Shown here: one piece after another, positions 36,553 through 55,781 of the stretch
Numbering within the stretch: the stretch's first letter is position 1
How the letters are laid out: the number at the start of each line of letters is the position of its first letter
DNA from: Deferribacterales bacterium UBA4806
GTDB lineage: Bacteria; Chrysiogenota; Deferribacteres; Deferribacterales; UBA228
DNA length: 58,777 bases
Direction of reading: 5' to 3'
NCBI GenBank assembly: GCA_002402635.1
Contig: DHGE01000167.1
Coordinates: 9,241 to 68,017 of the forward strand
Translations under genes and position numbers: made by a program
The notes under the pieces: model-generated
Databases searched by the model: none
Told to the model about the DNA's origin: nothing
What the model saw: only the letters and a program-made list of their open reading frames with translations

Positions 36553-37842
36553 TTGTATAACTCTCTTATGAGCTTTATACCTTATTACAGTGATTTAGTT
36601 CATCCAGCTGTATTGATTTCATCAATTGCAATTTTCCATACTTTTATTGCACATTTTTCTATTGGAATGGGTTTGTATGTTATTATCTGTGAATATTTTG
36701 CTTACAAAAAAAACAATATGGTACTTTTGGAATACACAAAAAAAAATAGTTCTCTCATACTTTTCATAGCAACTGTGTTAGGGGCTTTGACAGGTGTGGG
36801 TATCTGGTTTGTTATATCTATTATTGCTCCATTTGCTACTTCAACATTAATACATAATTTTGTATGGTTCTGGGCAAGTGAATGGGTGTTCTTTGTAATA
36901 GAAATTGTTACTATTTTACTTTATTATTATTTATGGGGCAAAATTGAGAAAAAACTTCATTTAATTATAGGCATTATTTATTTTATAAGTGGTTATTGTA
37001 GCTTAATATTAATAAATGGCATTATCTCTTTTCAATTAACTCCAGGGAAATGGCTTGAGACAAAAAACGTATGGGATGGTTTTTTTAATCCATCATTTCT
37101 TCCTTCAACAATAGCACGAACAGGATTCTGTTTGATATTAGCGTCAATTTTCTCTACCCTTATTATTTCTTTCTTAAAAAATAGTGATATAAAAAAATAC
37201 ACTGGGAGAATATCAACAATATTTATTGTTGTAGGTGCACTCTTCTGCATTGTGGGCACATATCTGTGGGTGCAATCAATACCTGAAAATGTTAGATCTC
37301 AATTATCTGGTGGAAACACCACATTAACACATTTCTTCCATTATTATATAATTACGGGGGTTATCCTCATTGCGTTATCAATTATACTAGAACTTATCTT
37401 CTATAAATATTTTAATATTGTCTTTTCAATAATATTGTTATGCGTAGGGATGACTGCCTTTTCGTATTTTGAATTTACCAGAGAAAGAGTGAGAAAACCT
37501 TTTCTAGTAAGAGACTACGTATATGCCAATGGCATACCTCTGGACAAAATAGATGAAATAAACACAACTGGCATACTAGAGTATACAAATGTAATTTTAA
37601 AAAGAAAAGAACTGACAGATGTACAAAAGGGTGAATTAATATATACATCAGAATGCTATAGCTGCCACAGCATAAATGGCTTTAACAACCTCAGAAGCAA
37701 ACTAGAGGGGTTAAAGGCAGAAGATATATTCTATGTTATTGATGGTATAGGCTATAACCCCTTAATGCCACCTTTTGTTGGAATTGAGTCAGAAAAGAAA
37801 TATTTAGCTGAATTTTTACAGGACAGGTTATCAAATAAATGA
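36553..37842 (+). CDS. Cytochrome bd subunit I (CydA)-superfamily membrane protein with C-terminal cytochrome c domain
   Basis: About nine TM helices; HTFIAH, GALTGVGIWF, SEWVFFVIE, FEFTRERVRKP (CydA-like); C-terminal CYSCH with distal MPPF; no recognisable Q-loop. Confidence 0.8.
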   Translation: MYNSLMSFIPYYSDLVHPAVLISSIAIFHTFIAHFSIGMGLYVIICEYFAYKKNNMVLLEYTKKNSSLILFIATVLGALTGVGIWFVISIIAPFATSTLIHNFVWFWASEWVFFVIEIVTILLYYYLWGKIEKKLHLIIGIIYFISGYCSLILINGIISFQLTPGKWLETKNVWDGFFNPSFLPSTIARTGFCLILASIFSTLIISFLKNSDIKKYTGRISTIFIVVGALFCIVGTYLWVQSIPENVRSQLSGGNTTLTHFFHYYIITGVILIALSIILELIFYKYFNIVFSIILLCVGMTAFSYFEFTRERVRKPFLVRDYVYANGIPLDKIDEINTTGILEYTNVILKRKELTDVQKGELIYTSECYSCHSINGFNNLRSKLEGLKAEDIFYVIDGIGYNPLMPPFVGIESEKKYLAEFLQDRLSNK

Positions 37843-37855
37843 ATGTTAGAGTGAT

Positions 37856-38929
37856 ATGTTAAATACTATAGCCGTTGTGCCTAATTATACAGAAATGTTA
37901 ACAGCGCCTGCTGTAATTTTTCAATTTCTCTATGTATTCACTTTTTTATTACATATAATATTTGTCAATCTGACACTTGGAGGCATTTTTTCTATCCTAT
38001 TATGCAAATATATATATAAAACATATAATGATAGTGTATATAATTCAATTGCCCATGATCTATCATTTATTAATACCTATAATATTTCACTAACAGTTAC
38101 AACAGCTATAGCACCATTACTTTTTATTCAGATTTTATATGACAAATTCTTTTATTCATCATCAATAATTATTGCCTATTACTGGTTATCTATTATATTT
38201 GCCATTATTATTGCCTATTATTTTAATTATATATACAAATATAAACTCTTTTATTTAAAATTCAGAATAGCTGGCGGCACAATATTTATGGTTATAGTAT
38301 TTATACTATTTTTGTATACTACCTTTATGCTCGTTTCTAATACTCTTCTATCAGTAAACCCAGAAATATGGAAGGAACAATATAAAAATATAAATTTTCT
38401 TAATATTCCTACTATTATCCCTAGATATTTACACTTTTTGATAGGATCTATAGCCTTAAATGGTATATTCATATGCATCTACTCAAAAGCTAGGAAATCT
38501 CTTAATGAAAATATAAAAACAAAAATGTTTATACTCGGCAAAAATATGTTTATATACGCCACACTACTTCAATTTATTGTGGGCTTCTGGTTTTTATTCT
38601 CCCATAAAAAAATGATATGGCTAAATATTGTTCAAGGCTATGGTTTGATTTTAATTATTTTAACTGTTCTTTTTTCTTTATATATTATTTATTTGTTTAT
38701 AAAAAATGGTTCTCTTTTATTAATAACTATTTTTGGCATTCTAACACTGATTCTTATGGTAATTTTAAGAAGGCTCACAGAAGTCTATTATTTAGAGCCT
38801 TACTTAAAAAATCTTAAATTTGTGTCACATTACCAATTTTCTGCTCTTGCAATGTTTTTAATACTATTTATTATAATGTTAGTATTATTTGCTTACCTGT
38901 TTAAATGCATTCATAAAAATAGAATTTAG
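37856..38929 (+). CDS. Partner multi-TM subunit of the bd-superfamily oxidoreductase
   Basis: About nine TM helices with FLLHIIFVN, APLLFIQILY, PRYLHFL; 13 nt downstream of the CydA-like gene. Confidence 0.7.
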   Translation: MLNTIAVVPNYTEMLTAPAVIFQFLYVFTFLLHIIFVNLTLGGIFSILLCKYIYKTYNDSVYNSIAHDLSFINTYNISLTVTTAIAPLLFIQILYDKFFYSSSIIIAYYWLSIIFAIIIAYYFNYIYKYKLFYLKFRIAGGTIFMVIVFILFLYTTFMLVSNTLLSVNPEIWKEQYKNINFLNIPTIIPRYLHFLIGSIALNGIFICIYSKARKSLNENIKTKMFILGKNMFIYATLLQFIVGFWFLFSHKKMIWLNIVQGYGLILIILTVLFSLYIIYLFIKNGSLLLITIFGILTLILMVILRRLTEVYYLEPYLKNLKFVSHYQFSALAMFLILFIIMLVLFAYLFKCIHKNRI

Positions 38930-42321: not shown

Positions 42322-43977
42322 TTATTCACCTTTTCCGTTTTTAACGTCTTCTAAAGCTGTTTTTCTTAGTTTATAATGTTGCTTTTTACCAGTAGCCGTT
42401 CTGGGTAATTCATCAACAAAAATATAATAACGTGGTCTTTCCTGTGGAGAAATCATCGGATTGCTATTAACATATTTACGTAGCTCATCTATAGTTAAAG
42501 AATTGTCTTTTTTTACAATATATGCAACAAGTATCTTACCGCGCTTTGTGTCATTAGCCCCAACTATTGCTGAATCAAGAATTTTTGGATGTCTATTGAT
42601 TATCTCTTCAATTTGAGCAGGATAAATATTATTGCCACCAACGATAATCATATCGTCTTTTCTTGCTCTTATTGTTATATACTGATCCTGATCCCATGTA
42701 GCTAAATCTCCAGGATAAAACCAATCTCCCTTTATTCTAGTTTTCATTTCCTCTTCATTATTAAAGTAAAATAAGGTTCCCTTTATTGTTTTAACAGCTA
42801 TTTCACCAACTTCTTTATCGTCCATTGCAACTAATTCATCTGGATCTGCCAGTCTGTCCTGATATACCTTTACAATTCTAACGTCGTCATCTATCGCAGC
42901 TCTACCCGTTTGTCCTGCTCTTTCCGGTAAATCATAGGGTGTTAGAATTTCATTGAGTAAAGTTTCACTTGTTCCACAGGCATTATATATTTTATTGGTA
43001 AATACCTTTATAAGTTCCGTACAGAGGTCTCTCTCAAGAGGAGCTCCCATACTTAAAATAATTTCCAGTGAATCAACATTCTTATGTAACTTTTTCTGCT
43101 CCTCTAAAAGAGCATAAAACATTGTGGGAACTCCCACAACAACAGATACTTTATATTTCTCTATATACTCTAATGCACTGCGTGGATGAAAATATTTTAT
43201 AGATACGCAACATCCCCCTAAATAAAATGTGGGATTTGGCCCACCAACATACAACCCTCCTCTATGAAACCAAGGTGATATATTCATTAATACATCATGA
43301 ATATCATACTTCAGGTGCATTATTAAATCATGGGAAGCCAATACTTCATTAATATTATTTATTGGAAAACCTTTGGGTATTCCAGTAGTGCCTGAAGTAT
43401 AAAGTCTCGTAACTTCATCATAAGCATTAAATTCGATATCCACTTCTGGTTCACTCTCTGATGCATTACTTACAAATTCTTCATATCTGATAAAAGGATA
43501 CTTCAATTGTTGAGTATCATCGGCATCAACTATAATTACTTTTTTTGGTTTAAAGGTTGATAGATTAATTGCTTCAACTACAACATTAATAAGGGAAATA
43601 TCTACAAATAAGATAACAGGTTTGCTTTCATCTATAATATAGCTGACTTCGCCTGGTGCCATTTTAAAGTTTATAGGGCAATTTATGCATCCTATTTTTT
43701 GTGTTGCAAGATAAATAAATGCGAATTCAGGGCAGTTCATAAGCATATATAAAACCAGATCGTTACCTTTCAAATCTTCTTTTAACATAGCATTTGAAAG
43801 TTTATTAACTTCATAATTAAGATCTCTATAAGTATAAAAGGTATTTTTATTAGCATTAATCAAAGCTTTCCTGTTGGGGAAACGAAATACATTCCTTTTA
43901 AACCCTTCAATATAAATACAATTTCTTTCAAATAAACTTCTATATTTCTCAACGTCATAAGTAAAGGGTCTTCTCAT
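42322..43977 (-). CDS. AMP-dependent acyl-CoA synthetase (class I adenylate-forming enzyme)
   Basis: YTSGTTGIPKG, GTSE, GDL, RKDDMIIVGG, LPRTATGK. Confidence 0.92.
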   Translation of the reverse strand: MRRPFTYDVEKYRSLFERNCIYIEGFKRNVFRFPNRKALINANKNTFYTYRDLNYEVNKLSNAMLKEDLKGNDLVLYMLMNCPEFAFIYLATQKIGCINCPINFKMAPGEVSYIIDESKPVILFVDISLINVVVEAINLSTFKPKKVIIVDADDTQQLKYPFIRYEEFVSNASESEPEVDIEFNAYDEVTRLYTSGTTGIPKGFPINNINEVLASHDLIMHLKYDIHDVLMNISPWFHRGGLYVGGPNPTFYLGGCCVSIKYFHPRSALEYIEKYKVSVVVGVPTMFYALLEEQKKLHKNVDSLEIILSMGAPLERDLCTELIKVFTNKIYNACGTSETLLNEILTPYDLPERAGQTGRAAIDDDVRIVKVYQDRLADPDELVAMDDKEVGEIAVKTIKGTLFYFNNEEEMKTRIKGDWFYPGDLATWDQDQYITIRARKDDMIIVGGNNIYPAQIEEIINRHPKILDSAIVGANDTKRGKILVAYIVKKDNSLTIDELRKYVNSNPMISPQERPRYYIFVDELPRTATGKKQHYKLRKTALEDVKNGKGE

Positions 43978-43979
43978 TT

Positions 43980-45242
43980 TTATTCTCTATACCTTTTTAA
44001 AATTATTGATGCATTAACGCCACCAAAACCAAAAGAATTTGACAATACGACATTTACTTCCTTCTTTCTAGCTTTATGTGGAACATAATCGAGATCACAT
44101 TCAGGATCTGGATTATCTAAATTAATTGTTGGTGGTATAATACCATCAATTATAGTCATAGCTGAAAATATGGCTTCAACCAATCCCGATGCTGCTAATA
44201 AATGACCCGTCATAGACTTATTTGAGGATATTGGTATTTTATATGAATAATCACCAAATAATTTTTTTATAGCCTGTGTTTCTATAAGATCATTTATTTG
44301 TGTTGATGTGCCATGAGCATTTATATAATCAACCTCTTTTAATTTAACTTTGCTATCAATTATTGCATTTTCCATACATTTAACAATTGCAATTCCATCA
44401 GGATTTGGTGCAATTGAATGTGATGAATCAGTTGTTGCTCCAAAACCGCAAACTTCTGCATATATTTTTGCATTTCTTTTTTTTGCATAATCCAAGGTCT
44501 CAAGCAACACGGCACCAGAACCTTCAGAAATGACAAACCCAGACCTATCTCTATCAAAAGGCCTACTAGCTTTTTCAGGGCAATCGTTCCATTTTACATC
44601 AGCAATTGCCGTTAAATTTCCTAACCCTGCTATAACAGTTGGAATAATTCCTGATTCCGATGCTACCACAAGAGCTGCATCTATTTCACCATTTTGTATC
44701 ATCCGTAACCCCAGTCCAATGGCTTTTGTCCCTGAGGCACATGCTTCCTGCAAGAAATGTTGAGGGCCTTTAAATTCATACTTAACTGCAGTATCGCCGG
44801 CAATAACATTAGATGCTAAATTTAAAATTAAAAAAGGTGTGATTTTATTTACCTTATCTTCAAAATAAAGTTTACAGTTTTCTTCAAATAAACGATAAGC
44901 GCCAATACAACTTGAACCAATTACGGATAATTTATAAATATCTCTATCCATTTTTTCAAAAAAACTATCCTTCATACATGTATCTGCAGCTGCCATAAAA
45001 AGGTGCTGCATTCTATCTGTTCGTCTTATAAATTTTTTAGTAAAATACTGTTCAGGATTAAAGTTTTTTACAAGCCCAGCAATTTTATGCTTAATCTTAG
45101 ATGTATCACAACAATCGATTACACTTATTCCAGAGAGTCCTCTGCATAAGTTATTCCAGCTTTCCTCCAAATTCAAACCTAAGGGAGTAATTGCTGACAT
45201 ACCGGTTATAACTACTCTTCTATTTTTCATCATATCTCCCAT
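43980..45242 (-). CDS. fabF: Beta-ketoacyl-ACP synthase II (FabF-like paralog)
   Basis: RRVVITG, EACASG (Cys), AHGTST and GHLL (His/His), SRPFDRDRSGFV, NSFGFGG. Confidence 0.9.
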   Translation of the reverse strand: MGDMMKNRRVVITGMSAITPLGLNLEESWNNLCRGLSGISVIDCCDTSKIKHKIAGLVKNFNPEQYFTKKFIRRTDRMQHLFMAAADTCMKDSFFEKMDRDIYKLSVIGSSCIGAYRLFEENCKLYFEDKVNKITPFLILNLASNVIAGDTAVKYEFKGPQHFLQEACASGTKAIGLGLRMIQNGEIDAALVVASESGIIPTVIAGLGNLTAIADVKWNDCPEKASRPFDRDRSGFVISEGSGAVLLETLDYAKKRNAKIYAEVCGFGATTDSSHSIAPNPDGIAIVKCMENAIIDSKVKLKEVDYINAHGTSTQINDLIETQAIKKLFGDYSYKIPISSNKSMTGHLLAASGLVEAIFSAMTIIDGIIPPTINLDNPDPECDLDYVPHKARKKEVNVVLSNSFGFGGVNASIILKRYRE

Positions 45243-45296
45243 TTATCTCAAATGAGGATTTTATAAAAAATTAATTTTTTATCAACTGAAAATATT

Positions 45297-45965
45297 CTAT
45301 CTGCTCTCTTTTGTTTGATTTATCAACAATGATTTATTATCCTTTAATATATTTGCATTTATATCTATAGGCTCTCCTATAAAATATTCAATATGATTAA
45401 AAGGTAAAAGAAATTTATACTTATCCCATCTTTTTTTTATTATATATTTATGAAGAACTTTAACATTTATTGGCACTATTTTTCTATTTAAGAATTGAGC
45501 TAATTTAAAAACCAACAACTTAGGTTGATAAATTGGTCCCATCGGACCATCCAAAGCTAAAGCTAGATCATATTCATTTTTTAGAAATTTTCTCATTTTA
45601 AAAATCAAATTCCCTTGAACAGGAACATCTGGTAGCCGAAAGGTTAAATAATTATAATGCTTGCAAGTAAAATCAATATAGTTGCCTCTAATATTTTCTG
45701 TTGTTATAATGACAAATTTTACATCATCTTTTATCTTTTTCATTAATGGATATAAAGCAAATGTGTCTCCATGCCAGTACCCGAATATATATTTTTCTTT
45801 ATTAATAGATAATAAATCCGCTCTACCCTTTATTGTTATTTTACTTGTATAGTATACCAACTCTACATAAGTTATGAGCATTCTAGATAGTATATAATTA
45901 AAAAACCTTCTAAACTTATATATTCTTTTCCTTATCATATATGAGCTTAGCATAAAGTTTAGCAA
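45297..45965 (-). CDS. DUF374 / lysophospholipid acyltransferase-family protein
   Basis: YWHG, LALDGPMGP, RWDKYKFLLPF, GEPI motifs. Confidence 0.8.
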   Translation of the reverse strand: MLNFMLSSYMIRKRIYKFRRFFNYILSRMLITYVELVYYTSKITIKGRADLLSINKEKYIFGYWHGDTFALYPLMKKIKDDVKFVIITTENIRGNYIDFTCKHYNYLTFRLPDVPVQGNLIFKMRKFLKNEYDLALALDGPMGPIYQPKLLVFKLAQFLNRKIVPINVKVLHKYIIKKRWDKYKFLLPFNHIEYFIGEPIDINANILKDNKSLLINQTKESR

Positions 45966-48150
45966 CTTTTTCCGCTATACTTTCAAGAGTGTATTTTTTT
46001 GAATATTTGTATGCATTCTTAGATAACTCATTATGCAACGAACTATTCTCCAAAATAAATTTAATTTTCAATGCCCAATCATTAATATTTTCACTAGTCT
46101 TATAGCCATTATATTCATTAATTATAATATCATCAATTCCACTAGATCTAACAGCAACTACAGGGTTTTCTCCAGCCATTGCTTCTAATAATACTAATCC
46201 CTGTGTTTCTGTTGTTGAAGCAAAAACAAATATATCAGAAAACTTATAATATTTACATAGTTCAGAAGGATCAACTGCTCCTAAGAAAACAACATCTCCT
46301 TTAAGATCTTTTAAATTTACATAATTTTCAATAGATTTCCTCTCCTCTCCATCGCCAATTATTAACAAGGTAAATGGAGTTTTCATAATTTTCTTTAAAT
46401 AGGCTATTCCATCAATTAGGAAATATAAATTTTTTTCTTTAGATAATCTTGACACTGTTATTAGAATAAATTTTCTTTCATTAGATCTATACTTATTGTT
46501 TAAATGTAAGATATCGGATTCATTAATATTTCTATATAAATCAAAATCAATGCCAGTCGGAATTACTTCTATTTGTGTTCTAATTCCAATATTCCTTAAA
46601 TAATCTTTTGCAGCAAGAGTGGGAGCAATTATTAGATCGCATTGTTCCCCAAATTTTTTTATTATAAAATGAGACAATATATTTTTAAATATCCTGCTAT
46701 TTATTGGAACATAATGAGCATATTTTTCTAATCTTGTGTGATAAGTCAAAACTAAAGGACAGTTATAAATTTTTGCTAGTCTCAAGCCTTTTTTTCCCAT
46801 CCAAAAAGGATGATGTACGTGAACAATTTGAATATTTTTATTTTCAAATATCTTTCTTATGCGTGGAGCAAAAATATTTACAATTGGTATATTATGAAAT
46901 TTTTTATAATAACCAATGCTATTTAATCTTATGACTTCTATATCCTTTTCATCAGTATATTTGCCTTTAAATAAAGGAGCAAAAATAATTGGGTTTTCTC
47001 CTAGTTTTTTCAAACCCTTAGCCAACCTATAAATAGCAACAGGGACACCACCAATAAATGGAAAATAATTATTTGTGAACATTGCTATATTTAGAGGTCT
47101 ATAAATATCTAATTGGTCATAGTTAAAAGAGTAATCTTGATAATATTCAACATCATCATTTATTTTATAATAAAAATAGATACCTATAATAAACAAAATT
47201 GAAATAATAATAAAAAAATTAATAAAACCAACATAAAATAAAGAGTGGATTTGAAACCATAAATTTTCAATTTGTCTTATAAAGTAACTAGTATATTTAT
47301 ATGCTATATTTATTTTATTTATATTAAATTGACCATCTTCATTTATAGAGACTTTAATATAATGGTAATAGTTATCATCTTCATCTAATATAAATCCTCC
47401 TGCTCCTCCAGATATGTAATATTTCACTCCTTTGATAGTTCTTTCATCATATAAGCCAAGATTTGATGCAAAGACAGCGCTGACTTTAAATTGTGAGAAA
47501 AGGTCTATCAAATAACTTCTAAAATTTTCATCTTCAAGAATATAATCCTCTACATCTATAGGGAAACTAATGTTTTCTGGTTTATACAAGGGTTTATTCA
47601 TAAAGATAAATTTATTTTTTCTAAAATTATTATCTTTCAATTCATCATAAATCCACTTTTTGACATACAATGGAGTTGTTGTTCCAGTGGTATCTAGAAA
47701 TAAAAATAGATTATCATTTTTAACAAAGGAAAATAGCAACGGTCCAAAATGTCTATAATAATTTGAAATATTACCCATTGTGCACTCATTTACACCAATA
47801 ACATTAAGCAATGGTGGATTTAATAATTTTATACTTTTATAAAGCAACCTAAATTTATCTTCTCCACTGCTCACAACTGCATTGCCAAGGGAAACTATAA
47901 AATCTAGATTTTCTTTGTTTAACAATGGAATTATTTTTTTTTCAAAGATGCTTATAGAATTTTTAATGTTTCCAATTACTGCAAAATTAACATTATGTGC
48001 TTTAACTTTTTCTATTTTAGCAACATTTTTTATATTAATCGCAACATAAGTATCTTCCAAAAAATAAAGATAAAATTTATAAAATATAAAAATTGAAAGG
48101 AAAAAAATATCAATAAACAACAATACTTTAAATTTATAATTCTTCATCAA
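45916..48150 (-). CDS. Membrane protein: degenerate metallophosphoesterase domain between two TM helices, fused to a GT4 glycosyltransferase (diacylglycerol glucosyltransferase-like)
   Basis: TM1; MPE fold with GNIKN, LGNAV, GVNE, MNKP and ASNLG replacing the canonical motifs, SGGAGG retained; TM2; then IAMFTNNYFPFIGGV, HVHHPF, TYHT, IPTGID, SRLSKEKN, ETQGLVLLE. Confidence 0.88.
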   Translation of the reverse strand: MMKNYKFKVLLFIDIFFLSIFIFYKFYLYFLEDTYVAINIKNVAKIEKVKAHNVNFAVIGNIKNSISIFEKKIIPLLNKENLDFIVSLGNAVVSSGEDKFRLLYKSIKLLNPPLLNVIGVNECTMGNISNYYRHFGPLLFSFVKNDNLFLFLDTTGTTTPLYVKKWIYDELKDNNFRKNKFIFMNKPLYKPENISFPIDVEDYILEDENFRSYLIDLFSQFKVSAVFASNLGLYDERTIKGVKYYISGGAGGFILDEDDNYYHYIKVSINEDGQFNINKINIAYKYTSYFIRQIENLWFQIHSLFYVGFINFFIIISILFIIGIYFYYKINDDVEYYQDYSFNYDQLDIYRPLNIAMFTNNYFPFIGGVPVAIYRLAKGLKKLGENPIIFAPLFKGKYTDEKDIEVIRLNSIGYYKKFHNIPIVNIFAPRIRKIFENKNIQIVHVHHPFWMGKKGLRLAKIYNCPLVLTYHTRLEKYAHYVPINSRIFKNILSHFIIKKFGEQCDLIIAPTLAAKDYLRNIGIRTQIEVIPTGIDFDLYRNINESDILHLNNKYRSNERKFILITVSRLSKEKNLYFLIDGIAYLKKIMKTPFTLLIIGDGEERKSIENYVNLKDLKGDVVFLGAVDPSELCKYYKFSDIFVFASTTETQGLVLLEAMAGENPVVAVRSSGIDDIIINEYNGYKTSENINDWALKIKFILENSSLHNELSKNAYKYSKKYTLESIAEKVAKLYAKLIYDKEKNI

Positions 48151-49235
48151 TTTTTTTTAATTACAAAATTTTTTATTATACCATAATAAAAAATAAACAT
48201 TCCTATTATCATTCCAATATATATTGTAAAAAACCTCCAGGCAGCTGTTAATATAACTATATCATTACGATTTATAAATGAAGAAAAGATGTAAGAATAG
48301 GCTCCTTCTGCTATACCAGTTGATCCTGGAGTCGGAGCAAAATACATAATGAAGGTTATTATTATTTGATAACTAATTATGGTGCTAACAGGTATACTAT
48401 ATCCTAGACTTTTAATTAAAATAATAGAGAAAGTAAAAGAAGAGAACAAGAAAAGTGCAGAAAATATTACCGAAAGAATAGTATAATGTGGAGTTGTTTT
48501 AATAAAATCAAGCATACTATAAGTATAGATTGAGACTTCTCTTAAAAAAAAAGTTGAAACTTTTTTAAAATGTTTTCTTGATATGAGTTTTTTCTTTCTT
48601 AATTTTCTTAAAATAAAATAAATTGACTTTTTGAATAAACGCGATTTATACACTGTAAAAATAATTATAATAATATAAATAAATGTAACAATTACAGTAT
48701 AAATAACAAAGCTAAGGTGATATGGAATGTACTTGAAATTTTTCTCCATTATTATTGTAATTGGTACAGCTATTATAAAGAAAACAATGGTTATAGCTGT
48801 TCTAATTGTTGTTGCTGCTGTTGCATCACCTATGTTTACACCATATTTATTTAAATAATATATTTGAATAAACCCTCCTCCTGCAGCAGAGGGAGTTATA
48901 TTTGAAACAAATACATTTAAAAAAGTAATCTTCATTACTAATTTTACTGGGATTGTTATGTTTAAGCTTTTAAGGATAAAATAAAATCGAAAACAATCAA
49001 AAGCAAAATACATGAACAAACATATAAAAAGCCATATTACAGTTTTACCTTCAAAAAAACGATAGAAATTTAGATCAGCTCCACCTACTATTTTATAAAT
49101 AGCTATGATTGATAAAAGTGAAAATATAAAGGTTATAATAGCTAATAAGGAATAGTATTTAAGCCTCTTATATGTAATCTTTTCCTTTATCTTCTCACTT
49201 TCAAGTTTTTCAATATTTCGTACATATTTAGCCAT
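48147..49235 (-). CDS. Lysylphosphatidylglycerol-synthase TM-like (UPF0104, flippase-like) membrane protein
   Basis: Multi-TM; NITPSAAGG, PTPGSTGIAE, WRFFTIY motifs. ATGA overlap with the GT4 gene. Confidence 0.88.
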   Translation of the reverse strand: MAKYVRNIEKLESEKIKEKITYKRLKYYSLLAIITFIFSLLSIIAIYKIVGGADLNFYRFFEGKTVIWLFICLFMYFAFDCFRFYFILKSLNITIPVKLVMKITFLNVFVSNITPSAAGGGFIQIYYLNKYGVNIGDATAATTIRTAITIVFFIIAVPITIIMEKNFKYIPYHLSFVIYTVIVTFIYIIIIIFTVYKSRLFKKSIYFILRKLRKKKLISRKHFKKVSTFFLREVSIYTYSMLDFIKTTPHYTILSVIFSALFLFSSFTFSIILIKSLGYSIPVSTIISYQIIITFIMYFAPTPGSTGIAEGAYSYIFSSFINRNDIVILTAAWRFFTIYIGMIIGMFIFYYGIIKNFVIKKN

Positions 49236-49265: not shown

Positions 49266-49293
49266 TTGACAACAATAAAATTAAATTTATAAT
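49266..49293 (+). promoter_or_regulatory. Consensus sigma70 promoter, leaderless geometry
   Basis: TTGACA-16 nt-TATAAT-6 nt-ATG (49300), no SD. Confidence 0.65.
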
Positions 49294-55168: not shown

Positions 55169-55781
55169 TTAACCTTTTAATAATTTTGCTATTTTTGCTA
55201 CGTGTGCACCCTGAAATTTAGCAATTTCATATTCATTTGTTGAGGGTTGTCTTGATCCATCAACTCCTGCTAAAGTAGAAGCTCCATAGGGACTTCCTCC
55301 AGTGATCTCCTTCATTTCAGCTAAACCGTGAGTATGGAACTCCCACTACTATCATACCATGATGAAGCAAAACTGTTAAAAACGTAAAAATAGTAGTCTC
55401 CTGCCCACCATGCTGCGTTGCAGTGGAAGTAAAAACACTTCCCACTTTATTTATAAGAGCGCCTTTTGCCCATAGTTGCCCTGTCTGGTCAATAAAATTT
55501 TTCATCTGTGAGCACATATTCCCAAATCTAGTGGGTGTACCAAAAATAATTGCATCTGCCTCAGTAAGTTGATGGGCACTTATGATTGGGATATGAGCAA
55601 ATTTTTGTCTAGATTCATAAGCCCCCGTTTTTTCTAATACATCAAGAGGCACTAATTCAGGAACTTGAAATATTTTAACCTCTACACCTTCAACATTTCT
55701 AGATCCTTCGGCAATATATGTCGCAAGCTCATAAGTATGACCATACATACTATAAAATACTACATAAACCTTTACATTCAT
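55169..55781 (-). pseudogene. wrbA: NAD(P)H:quinone oxidoreductase WrbA, frameshifted
   Basis: [24 protein letters not shown], then VPYS-RFS-stop at 55317. The canonical C-terminus [32 protein letters not shown] continues in another frame to TAA at 55169. Confidence 0.88.

Follow-up and report, generated by a model that had tools for sequence, protein, structure and literature searches.

We analysed a 58,777-nucleotide stretch of DNA (the window) from Deferribacterales bacterium UBA4806 (contig DHGE01000167.1, positions 9,241 to 68,017), in which five co-directional genes on the minus strand occupy positions 42322-49235. The first three of these genes probably form a membrane glycolipid cassette that combines lipid synthesis, flipping, addition of an extra acyl chain and an outward-facing binding domain. 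An earlier note had read all five as one self-contained pathway that handles a special acyl chain and builds and exports an acylated glycolipid. We find that the five open reading frames (ORFs) are two units: a cassette core with an optional DUF374 gene, and a separate pair of FabF and ligase genes.

The orientation, overlaps and gaps described before are all present. Core gene 1 (48147-49235) encodes a UPF0104/LPG_synthase_TM flippase-like protein of 362 amino acids. Core gene 2 (45916-48147; 743 amino acids from its ATG; 398 homologues and an AlphaFold2 model) encodes a fusion of a transmembrane segment (TM), a disarmed metallophosphoesterase domain, a second TM and a family 4 glycosyltransferase (GT4). 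The optional gene 3 (45297-45938; 213 amino acids) is a paralogue of the DUF374/LpxJ acyltransferase family, assigned by alignment motifs. Flippase and fusion genes overlap by 1 nt at TGATG (4 nt if the start is the TTG at 48150), fusion and DUF374 genes by 23 nt. A 54-nt gap (45243-45296), the likely boundary between the two units, is followed by a FabF-like ketoacyl synthase (KAS) II gene (43980-45242) and, 2 nt further on, an ANL acyl-CoA/acyl-acyl carrier protein (ACP) ligase gene (42322-43977; Pfam scan). A sigma-70-like site with 10 of 12 matches lies inside the gap (45285-45258), which is weak evidence on its own because the region holds 60 such sites where 55 are expected. No terminator-like site was found in the gap, and third-position GC content (0.17-0.22) fails to separate the units.

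Within the fusion protein, TM1 (residues 8-26; 48070-48126), whose N-terminus is predicted to be inside from hydropathy and flanking charge, precedes the phosphoesterase-fold domain (about residues 53-280; 47308-47991), which was delimited by profile and fold searches and is predicted to be extracytoplasmic. TM2 (residues 303-321; 47185-47241; AlphaFold2 model and hydropathy) follows a helix at 288-303, and the GT4 domain of GT-B fold spans residues 353-741 (45925-47091). By hydropathy, 113 of 119 full-length homologues share the two-TM pattern, and the mean net charge around TM1 is +2.8 before and -1.0 after it (116 homologues). Two TMs with positive charge before the first therefore predict the N-terminus inside, residues of about 30-300 outside and the glycosyltransferase inside. 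The AlphaFold2 model (pLDDT 83.7, pTM 0.58) agrees with hydropathy in its helices and domains.

Pfam did not detect the phosphoesterase domain in the fusion. A profile search matched it to purple acid phosphatase (E 2e-7), Foldseek to Rv0805, GpdQ and purple acid phosphatase (E about 1e-12), and its Atlas features indicate a metallophosphoesterase fold (0.94). The window protein keeps none of the seven di-metal ligands of this fold (motifs D, GD, GNH, H, HxH): the canonical D, D, N, H, H, H, H are N60, N89, V119, N120, N184, N229 and G231. It differs from Rv0805, GpdQ and purple acid phosphatase in this respect, and also in being flanked by two TMs and fused to a glycosyltransferase. Five unfused TM-domain-TM relatives retain all seven ligands. 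Among 78 fused copies (L002-L004 were left out, two of them duplicating L096 and L097), 45 keep no ligand, 30 keep one and three keep two. That is, the catalytically disarmed, predicted extracytoplasmic domain proposed earlier recurs across phyla with at most two of seven ligands in every copy counted.

The loss follows a pattern. When 45 fused copies dereplicated at 70% identity were compared with 111 intact relatives, both aspartates (60 and 89) were asparagine in 91% of the former and 0% of the latter. Since the metal aspartates are fixed as asparagine, the site looks repurposed. N63, S64, S86, E96, E121 and H262 are 89-100% conserved in fused copies, and mean pairwise identity is 48% in the phosphoesterase domain and 53% in the glycosyltransferase domain. 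In a survey of the best 150 of 10,385 phosphoesterase-family representatives, the 18 with a glycosyltransferase comprised 17 disarmed proteins and one too partial to score, and no intact one; the 132 without comprised 106 intact, 17 disarmed and nine intermediate proteins. These 17 disarmed proteins are mostly short and resemble fragments of the fusion, while P0200 is a whole stand-alone protein. In a tree with the ligand columns left in, 34 fused domains formed one clade (Shimodaira-Hasegawa-like approximate likelihood ratio 99). One clade, disarmed yet conserved, points to a single fusion with loss of catalysis that was then kept under selection. From this one origin the fusion travels as a cassette, mostly among genera that we take to be from salt-water, hypersaline or anaerobic habitats.

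The flippase-like protein matches PF03706 (117 bits, cut-off 33) and TIGR00374 (99 bits, cut-off 43) and has seven hydrophobic segments; PF03706 is its sole Pfam family, and it has no MprF synthase domain. Neighbours of the fusion were counted in the best 80 loci of 596 stretches from an alignment-based genome scan, a scan with a single N-terminal sequence having given no match. These loci cover seven named phyla, Pseudomonadota contributing 55 of them. A UPF0104 gene adjoins the fusion in 58 of the 80, so that the pairing of glycolipid synthase and flippase put forward earlier does recur across phyla. A small DedA/VTT gene takes this place in 13 loci, and nine have neither. Five of these nine are cut by a contig end no more than 40 nt upstream, which leaves 75 scorable loci, 71 of them with a flippase-family neighbour. 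The junction between flippase and fusion genes is at most 30 nt in 43 of 44 measured cases. In 12 of the 13 DedA loci no UPF0104 gene was seen in the available flanks, and the DedA label changes three times on the fusion tree. The substitute DedA scores 22 bits against UptA (cut-off 250); from a motif we take these small proteins to be of the COG0398 type. DedA proteins of that type are putative phospholipid scramblases (10.1101/2023.01.04.522824). We consider it likely that the partner, UPF0104 or DedA, moves the product between leaflets. A complex prediction for the flippase and the N-terminal 326 residues of the fusion scored 0.00 (mark 0.32), gave no answer and was used neither way.

The two-gene core is a mobile cassette. 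It was found, without DUF374, FabF or ligase genes, on a conjugative Sulfitobacter plasmid and between insertion sequence (IS) elements in Pseudosulfitobacter. We also saw an IS transposase between flippase and fusion genes in the closed genome G010 (L096:12564-13694), and two tandem UPF0104 genes ahead of the fusion in a Halanaerobium genome (L026:5835-7960).

A DUF374 gene accompanies the fusion in seven of the 80 loci, again across phyla, as expected of the partner gene proposed earlier. The order flippase-fusion-DUF374 recurs in Clostridium (L016), Ilyobacter (L019) and G263, and across a contig break in G142. Among 399 Clostridia genomes scored for both genes (two more were unscored, and one fusion genome was the search centre), three carry the fusion and exactly the same three carry DUF374. 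The window protein scores 19.6 bits on the Pfam model, below the cut-off of 26.8, and its homologue in L019 passes with 32 bits. Like LpxJ it keeps the family motifs W-H, DGPxG and WD; a sequence search of the PDB with the DUF374 alignment gave no more than two matches, PlsC (E 0.42) and an implausible one. According to the accessible part of PMC6148475, DUF374 is LpxJ, a late acyltransferase of lipid A whose critical residues in Rickettsia are W60, H61, D86, D132, W172 and D173. The window protein keeps W55, H56, D130, W171 and D172 and has Arg84 at the position of D86, equivalence being set through LpxJ-like copies of related genomes and a motif in the primer table of that paper.

This arginine separates two groups of proteins. 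R-G was found in 10 of 10 cassette-linked copies and D-G in 8 of 8 housekeeping copies, the latter drawn from one order only, and the sets separate in the tree at 100/99. Unlike LpxJ, the window gene is extra to a housekeeping copy: the source genome (G000, 64% complete) has its own housekeeping DUF374 on contig C51, ahead of a gene that we presume, from a motif, to be WaaA-like. In the genomes G041-G043, whose completeness was not given, DUF374 is single-copy and LpxC had no match. The residue swap, the separate clade and the Clostridia without an LpxC match make an acceptor other than lipid A likely, and the cassette glycolipid is the simplest candidate. Acylation of the glycolipid by the DUF374 protein is thus rather probable in our estimate. 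Mycobacterial PatA, a structural analogue, acylates a mannose of a glycolipid. The resemblance of LpxJ to PatA is noted in PMC6148475.

The FabF and ligase genes behave differently. FabF was found in none of the 80 fusion loci (66 of which have at least 3 kb of downstream DNA). The window FabF scores 493.4 bits on TIGR03150 (cut-off 493.75) and 488 on NF005589 (387), with its Cys-His-His triad present (C168, H310, H347). The ligase has only paralogues of 24-26% identity, in two of the 80 loci. Its ortholog is missing from all 50 genomes surveyed out of those loci and present in one of five further fusion-bearing genomes. It occurs in 6 of 401 Clostridia, none of them among the three with the fusion and none with FabF within 1.5 kb of the ligase. 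In the congener G001, FabF and ligase (70% and 66% identical to the window proteins) directly follow asmA, and the cassette, for which no DUF374 match was found, lies on other contigs. In the window, six genes, the cassette included, stand between asmA and fabF, which are contiguous in the congener; the run of five genes is therefore a juxtaposition. The pair also lies away from the fusion locus in G003, G017, G024 and G043, and it is missing from the closed genome G010, which does carry the cassette. Conversely, G001, G003, G017 and G024 have the pair without a DUF374 of the linked type. FabF and ligase are thus a conserved two-gene unit of their own (window 42322-45242; L112, L113, L224, L225, L235), outside the cassette, as the absence of FabF from the 80 loci and the separate pair in the congener indicate.

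A pathway of five genes, in which a special acyl chain would be activated by the ligase, elongated by FabF and passed to the glycolipid by the DUF374 protein, would explain why all five genes share one direction and are separated by short gaps. It would also fit the window's phylum, where the pair occurs in five of six fusion genomes and the ligase ortholog in none of 62 others, and Parasporobacterium G043, which has both fusion and pair. But those five genomes belong to two families and do not count as independent cases, and with the distribution just described we regard this pathway, or a looser functional link, as very unlikely. Of the earlier interpretation, the glycolipid synthase and flippase, the disarmed domain and the DUF374 partner are upheld, and the self-contained five-gene pathway is not. 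FabF and ligase perhaps serve the uptake and elongation of fatty acids from outside. Elsewhere in its genome the congener encodes another FabF of more typical kind and, directly after the ligase, a stand-alone gene for LPG_synthase_C, the MprF synthase domain (L123:8787-9674). An ACP motif scan of the 64% complete source genome found none. In Idiomarina, and in this genus only, a cluster about 2-8 kb downstream of the fusion (L036, L037, L046, L089) holds genes that we take to encode an acyl carrier, an acyltransferase-like and a GT2-like protein; this acyl-carrier cluster may hold a KAS beyond the flank.

What the cassette makes was approached through the glycosyltransferase domain. It is a GT-B/GT4 enzyme with an EX7E motif and UDP-binding Arg/Lys, and H470, R567, K572, E647 and E655 are all kept in 48 of 48 aligned members. 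NF049988, the alpha-monoglucosyl-diacylglycerol synthase family, is the best family for the window domain (197 bits, followed by BshA with 109, IagA/BgsA with 95 and the GpgS model GlcN_PG_synth with 92). In each of the 48 members it alone among NCBIfam families reaches E<1e-40. Its own members presumably include Acholeplasma Mgs and Listeria LafA. The fusion differs from them in its N-terminal membrane and phosphoesterase part, as the family model covers the glycosyltransferase only. Diacylglycerol (DAG) or glycosyl-DAG is the likely acceptor, and UDP-glucose has about an even chance of being the donor.

The same cassette could instead glycosylate a phospholipid (phosphatidylglycerol, PG, or cardiolipin, as for GpgS) or a lipid-phosphate carrier. 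In the accessible part of PMC12713373, GpgS is a GT4 enzyme paired with a UPF0104 protein. Genes of the parent phosphoesterase family lie near PAP2, BacA and DedA-PAP2, which have been linked to undecaprenyl-phosphate recycling (10.1101/2023.01.04.522824). Against such a target, GlcN_PG_synth reaches less than half the score of the DAG glucosyltransferase model, no deacetylase recurs beside the fusion, and the substitute DedA scores far below the UptA cut-off. We consider this alternative unlikely.

To see where the disarmed domain came from, we turned to its intact relatives. In 80 metagenome loci (the best of 411, many on short contigs), PAP2 was near 13, LssY_C near 10, DedA near nine, and GT28 and GT4 near one each; BacA and DedA-PAP2 genes were also seen beside this family. 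In G008 (L099:7635-12926) and G025 (L101:7351-10485), a GT28 that resembles monogalactosyl-DAG synthase, an intact phosphoesterase and UPF0104 stand in one run, which is the unfused counterpart of the cassette in related genomes. A DedA-PAP2-LssY_C gene lies directly upstream of this run in G008 and about 8 kb off in G025. The L099 run has a patatin gene downstream and a two-component system beside it. In P0190 an intact phosphoesterase is joined to a DedA/VTT domain, much as PAP2 is in DedA-PAP2 fusions. A minority of loci thus suggests that the parent would be a membrane lipid-phosphate hydrolase. In the single record P0180, a PAS-HisKA-REC kinase, the N-terminal domain is a separately degenerate copy with three of seven ligands, flanked by TMs; by analogy with this one kinase, a disarmed copy may serve as a sensing domain. 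Stand-alone phosphoesterase paralogues also adjoin the cassette in L023:5830-7317, L078:5867-6895 and L220:9534-11030, with intact motifs in the first two.

We tentatively suggest, at a little short of an even chance, that ligand binding by the disarmed domain is signalled through both TMs, so that the domain would be more than a scaffold. The ligand would most probably be a lipid phosphate head group, similar to the substrate of the intact relatives. A pure membrane anchor or scaffold, which would aid folding or hold the flippase but neither bind a ligand nor signal, would agree with the conserved positions being mostly shared fold residues and with the variable former ligand positions 119, 184 and 231. 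However, both aspartates are fixed as isosteric asparagine across phyla, the six positions from N63 to H262 are strongly conserved, and TM helices alone would suffice as an anchor, which makes a scaffold quite improbable. Still less likely, and to our mind very improbable, is a gain of metal-independent activity by which the domain would process the flipped lipid outside, in place of the hexSDF deacetylase. Invariant E121, near-invariant H262, N60 and N89 could form a catalytic site, and the hexSDF tailoring enzyme is proposed to act after flipping (PMC10128005, accessible part). But intact relatives have E/D121 and H262 just as often, so that these residues are inherited, no new invariant nucleophile stands out, and phosphoesterase paralogues lie beside the cassette in L023 and L078 (both intact) and in G142.

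Taken together, we propose that the GT4 domain on the cytoplasmic side would make alpha-hexosyl-DAG at the inner leaflet, which the UPF0104 or DedA protein would then move to the outer leaflet. In loci that include it, the DUF374 paralogue would attach one more acyl chain, the third, to the sugar, and the outer disarmed domain would tune the glycosyltransferase by binding a lipid-phosphate head group. What we observed is which genes are present and linked, how the domains are ordered, that the metal ligands are lost and the glycosyltransferase motifs intact, that a second flippase family can replace the first, and that FabF and ligase are independent; the chemical steps are inferred. A bolder version, which we think doubtful, sees a receptor-like glycosyltransferase, in which a dead outer lipid phosphatase binds a lipid-phosphate head group or another envelope cue and switches on synthesis inside through the two TMs, served by two unrelated flippase families and, in some lineages, by an LpxJ-family enzyme, repurposed from lipid A, that makes a three-tailed glycolipid even where there is no lipopolysaccharide.

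Several points, besides the co-occurrence of FabF-ligase and fusion in the window's phylum, weigh against this glycolipid cassette. The 80 loci, rich in Marinobacter, were the top-scoring ones among 596, and 73 of them lack DUF374. The window copy keeps five of the six critical LpxJ residues, the D86 equivalent being missing. Four loci have upstream DNA but no flippase-family neighbour, 10 of the 13 DedA genes are on the opposite strand, and L082 has a divergent UPF0104 gene besides DedA (Pfam scan). UPF0104 was near none of the 80 intact-relative loci, most of which show no lipid gene (many contigs being short). Support for the sensor role comes from conservation and a single fusion to a kinase. 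The score of 197 bits compares with a curated NF049988 cut-off of 400 bits, and acceptor and donor of a GT4 enzyme are not readable from sequence: GpgS uses PG as acceptor (PMC12713373, accessible part). For GpgF and HexF, too, flipping is unproven, and loss of either still leaves product, as far as the accessible parts of PMC12713373 and PMC10128005 go.

Neither the fusion, labelled plainly 'glycosyltransferase' in RefSeq, nor the cassette was described in the literature searched, most subscription papers and supplements being outside the reach of that search. The closest systems, from the accessible parts of the papers concerned, are gpgSDF of Pseudomonas aeruginosa (PMC12713373) and hexSDF of Clostridioides difficile (PMC10128005, PMC11898633). 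As there, a lipid glycosyltransferase is co-encoded with a UPF0104/MprF-like flippase and a third gene that tailors the product. Unlike there, the cassette glycosyltransferase is integral, with two TMs and a disarmed phosphoesterase domain, an LpxJ-like acyltransferase gene takes the third place, and DedA can replace the flippase. A deacetylase of the gpgSDF/hexSDF type, which would yield an amino-sugar lipid, was found neither in the window region nor among the recurring neighbours scanned, singleton ORFs having been scanned only in part. A further comparison is with PlcP, which we take to share the metallophosphoesterase fold. PlcP is an active, separate, Pho-regulated phospholipase, whereas the cassette domain has lost its metal ligands, forms part of a fusion protein and would lie, by prediction, on the opposite side of the membrane. 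A PlcP-like supply of DAG by the fused domain was rejected, as the metal ligands are lost. Upstream regions showed no clear excess of Pho-boxes: 9 of 41 reached 10 of 14 consensus matches, versus 5 of 41 after one shuffle each. In the PlcP-Agt system of marine bacteria, a phosphoesterase gene stands beside a glycolipid glycosyltransferase gene and serves lipid remodelling under phosphate starvation (PMC4796936, accessible part).

Around the cassette, the alpha/beta hydrolase and AsmA genes mentioned earlier are present, together with an SNF symporter gene (Pfam scan), as is the proposed lipoprotein gene, whose 197-amino-acid product had no credible family match. As neighbours they are not conserved: related loci gave one weak hydrolase match and none of the others, and we rejected AsmA, hydrolase and lipoprotein as cassette members. 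A perfect TTGACA-16-TATAAT site (49266-49293, plus strand) lies in the 64 nt that separate the divergently oriented flippase and lipoprotein-like genes and is directed at the latter. Further off, an ORF at 55317-55781 (minus strand), presumably a WrbA-like flavodoxin, has only 154 amino acids compared to about 200 in its homologues in L083/L084 and may be truncated or frameshifted. At 36553-38929 (plus strand) lie genes for two polytopic membrane proteins that are reminiscent of a cytochrome bd-like pair; the first has a CxxCH cytochrome c motif at its end.

The cassette is small and offers a testable case for whether UPF0104 proteins flip glycolipids, for which the replacement of these proteins by small DedA proteins in about three lineages is independent support. 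It also bears on the role of DUF374/LpxJ proteins where there is no lipid A, and on the control of a lipid synthase by an extracytoplasmic pseudo-enzyme domain. With hosts among culturable genera (Marinobacter, Halomonas, Idiomarina) and copies on plasmids, the cassette may account for unassigned glycolipids in bacteria adapted to salt.

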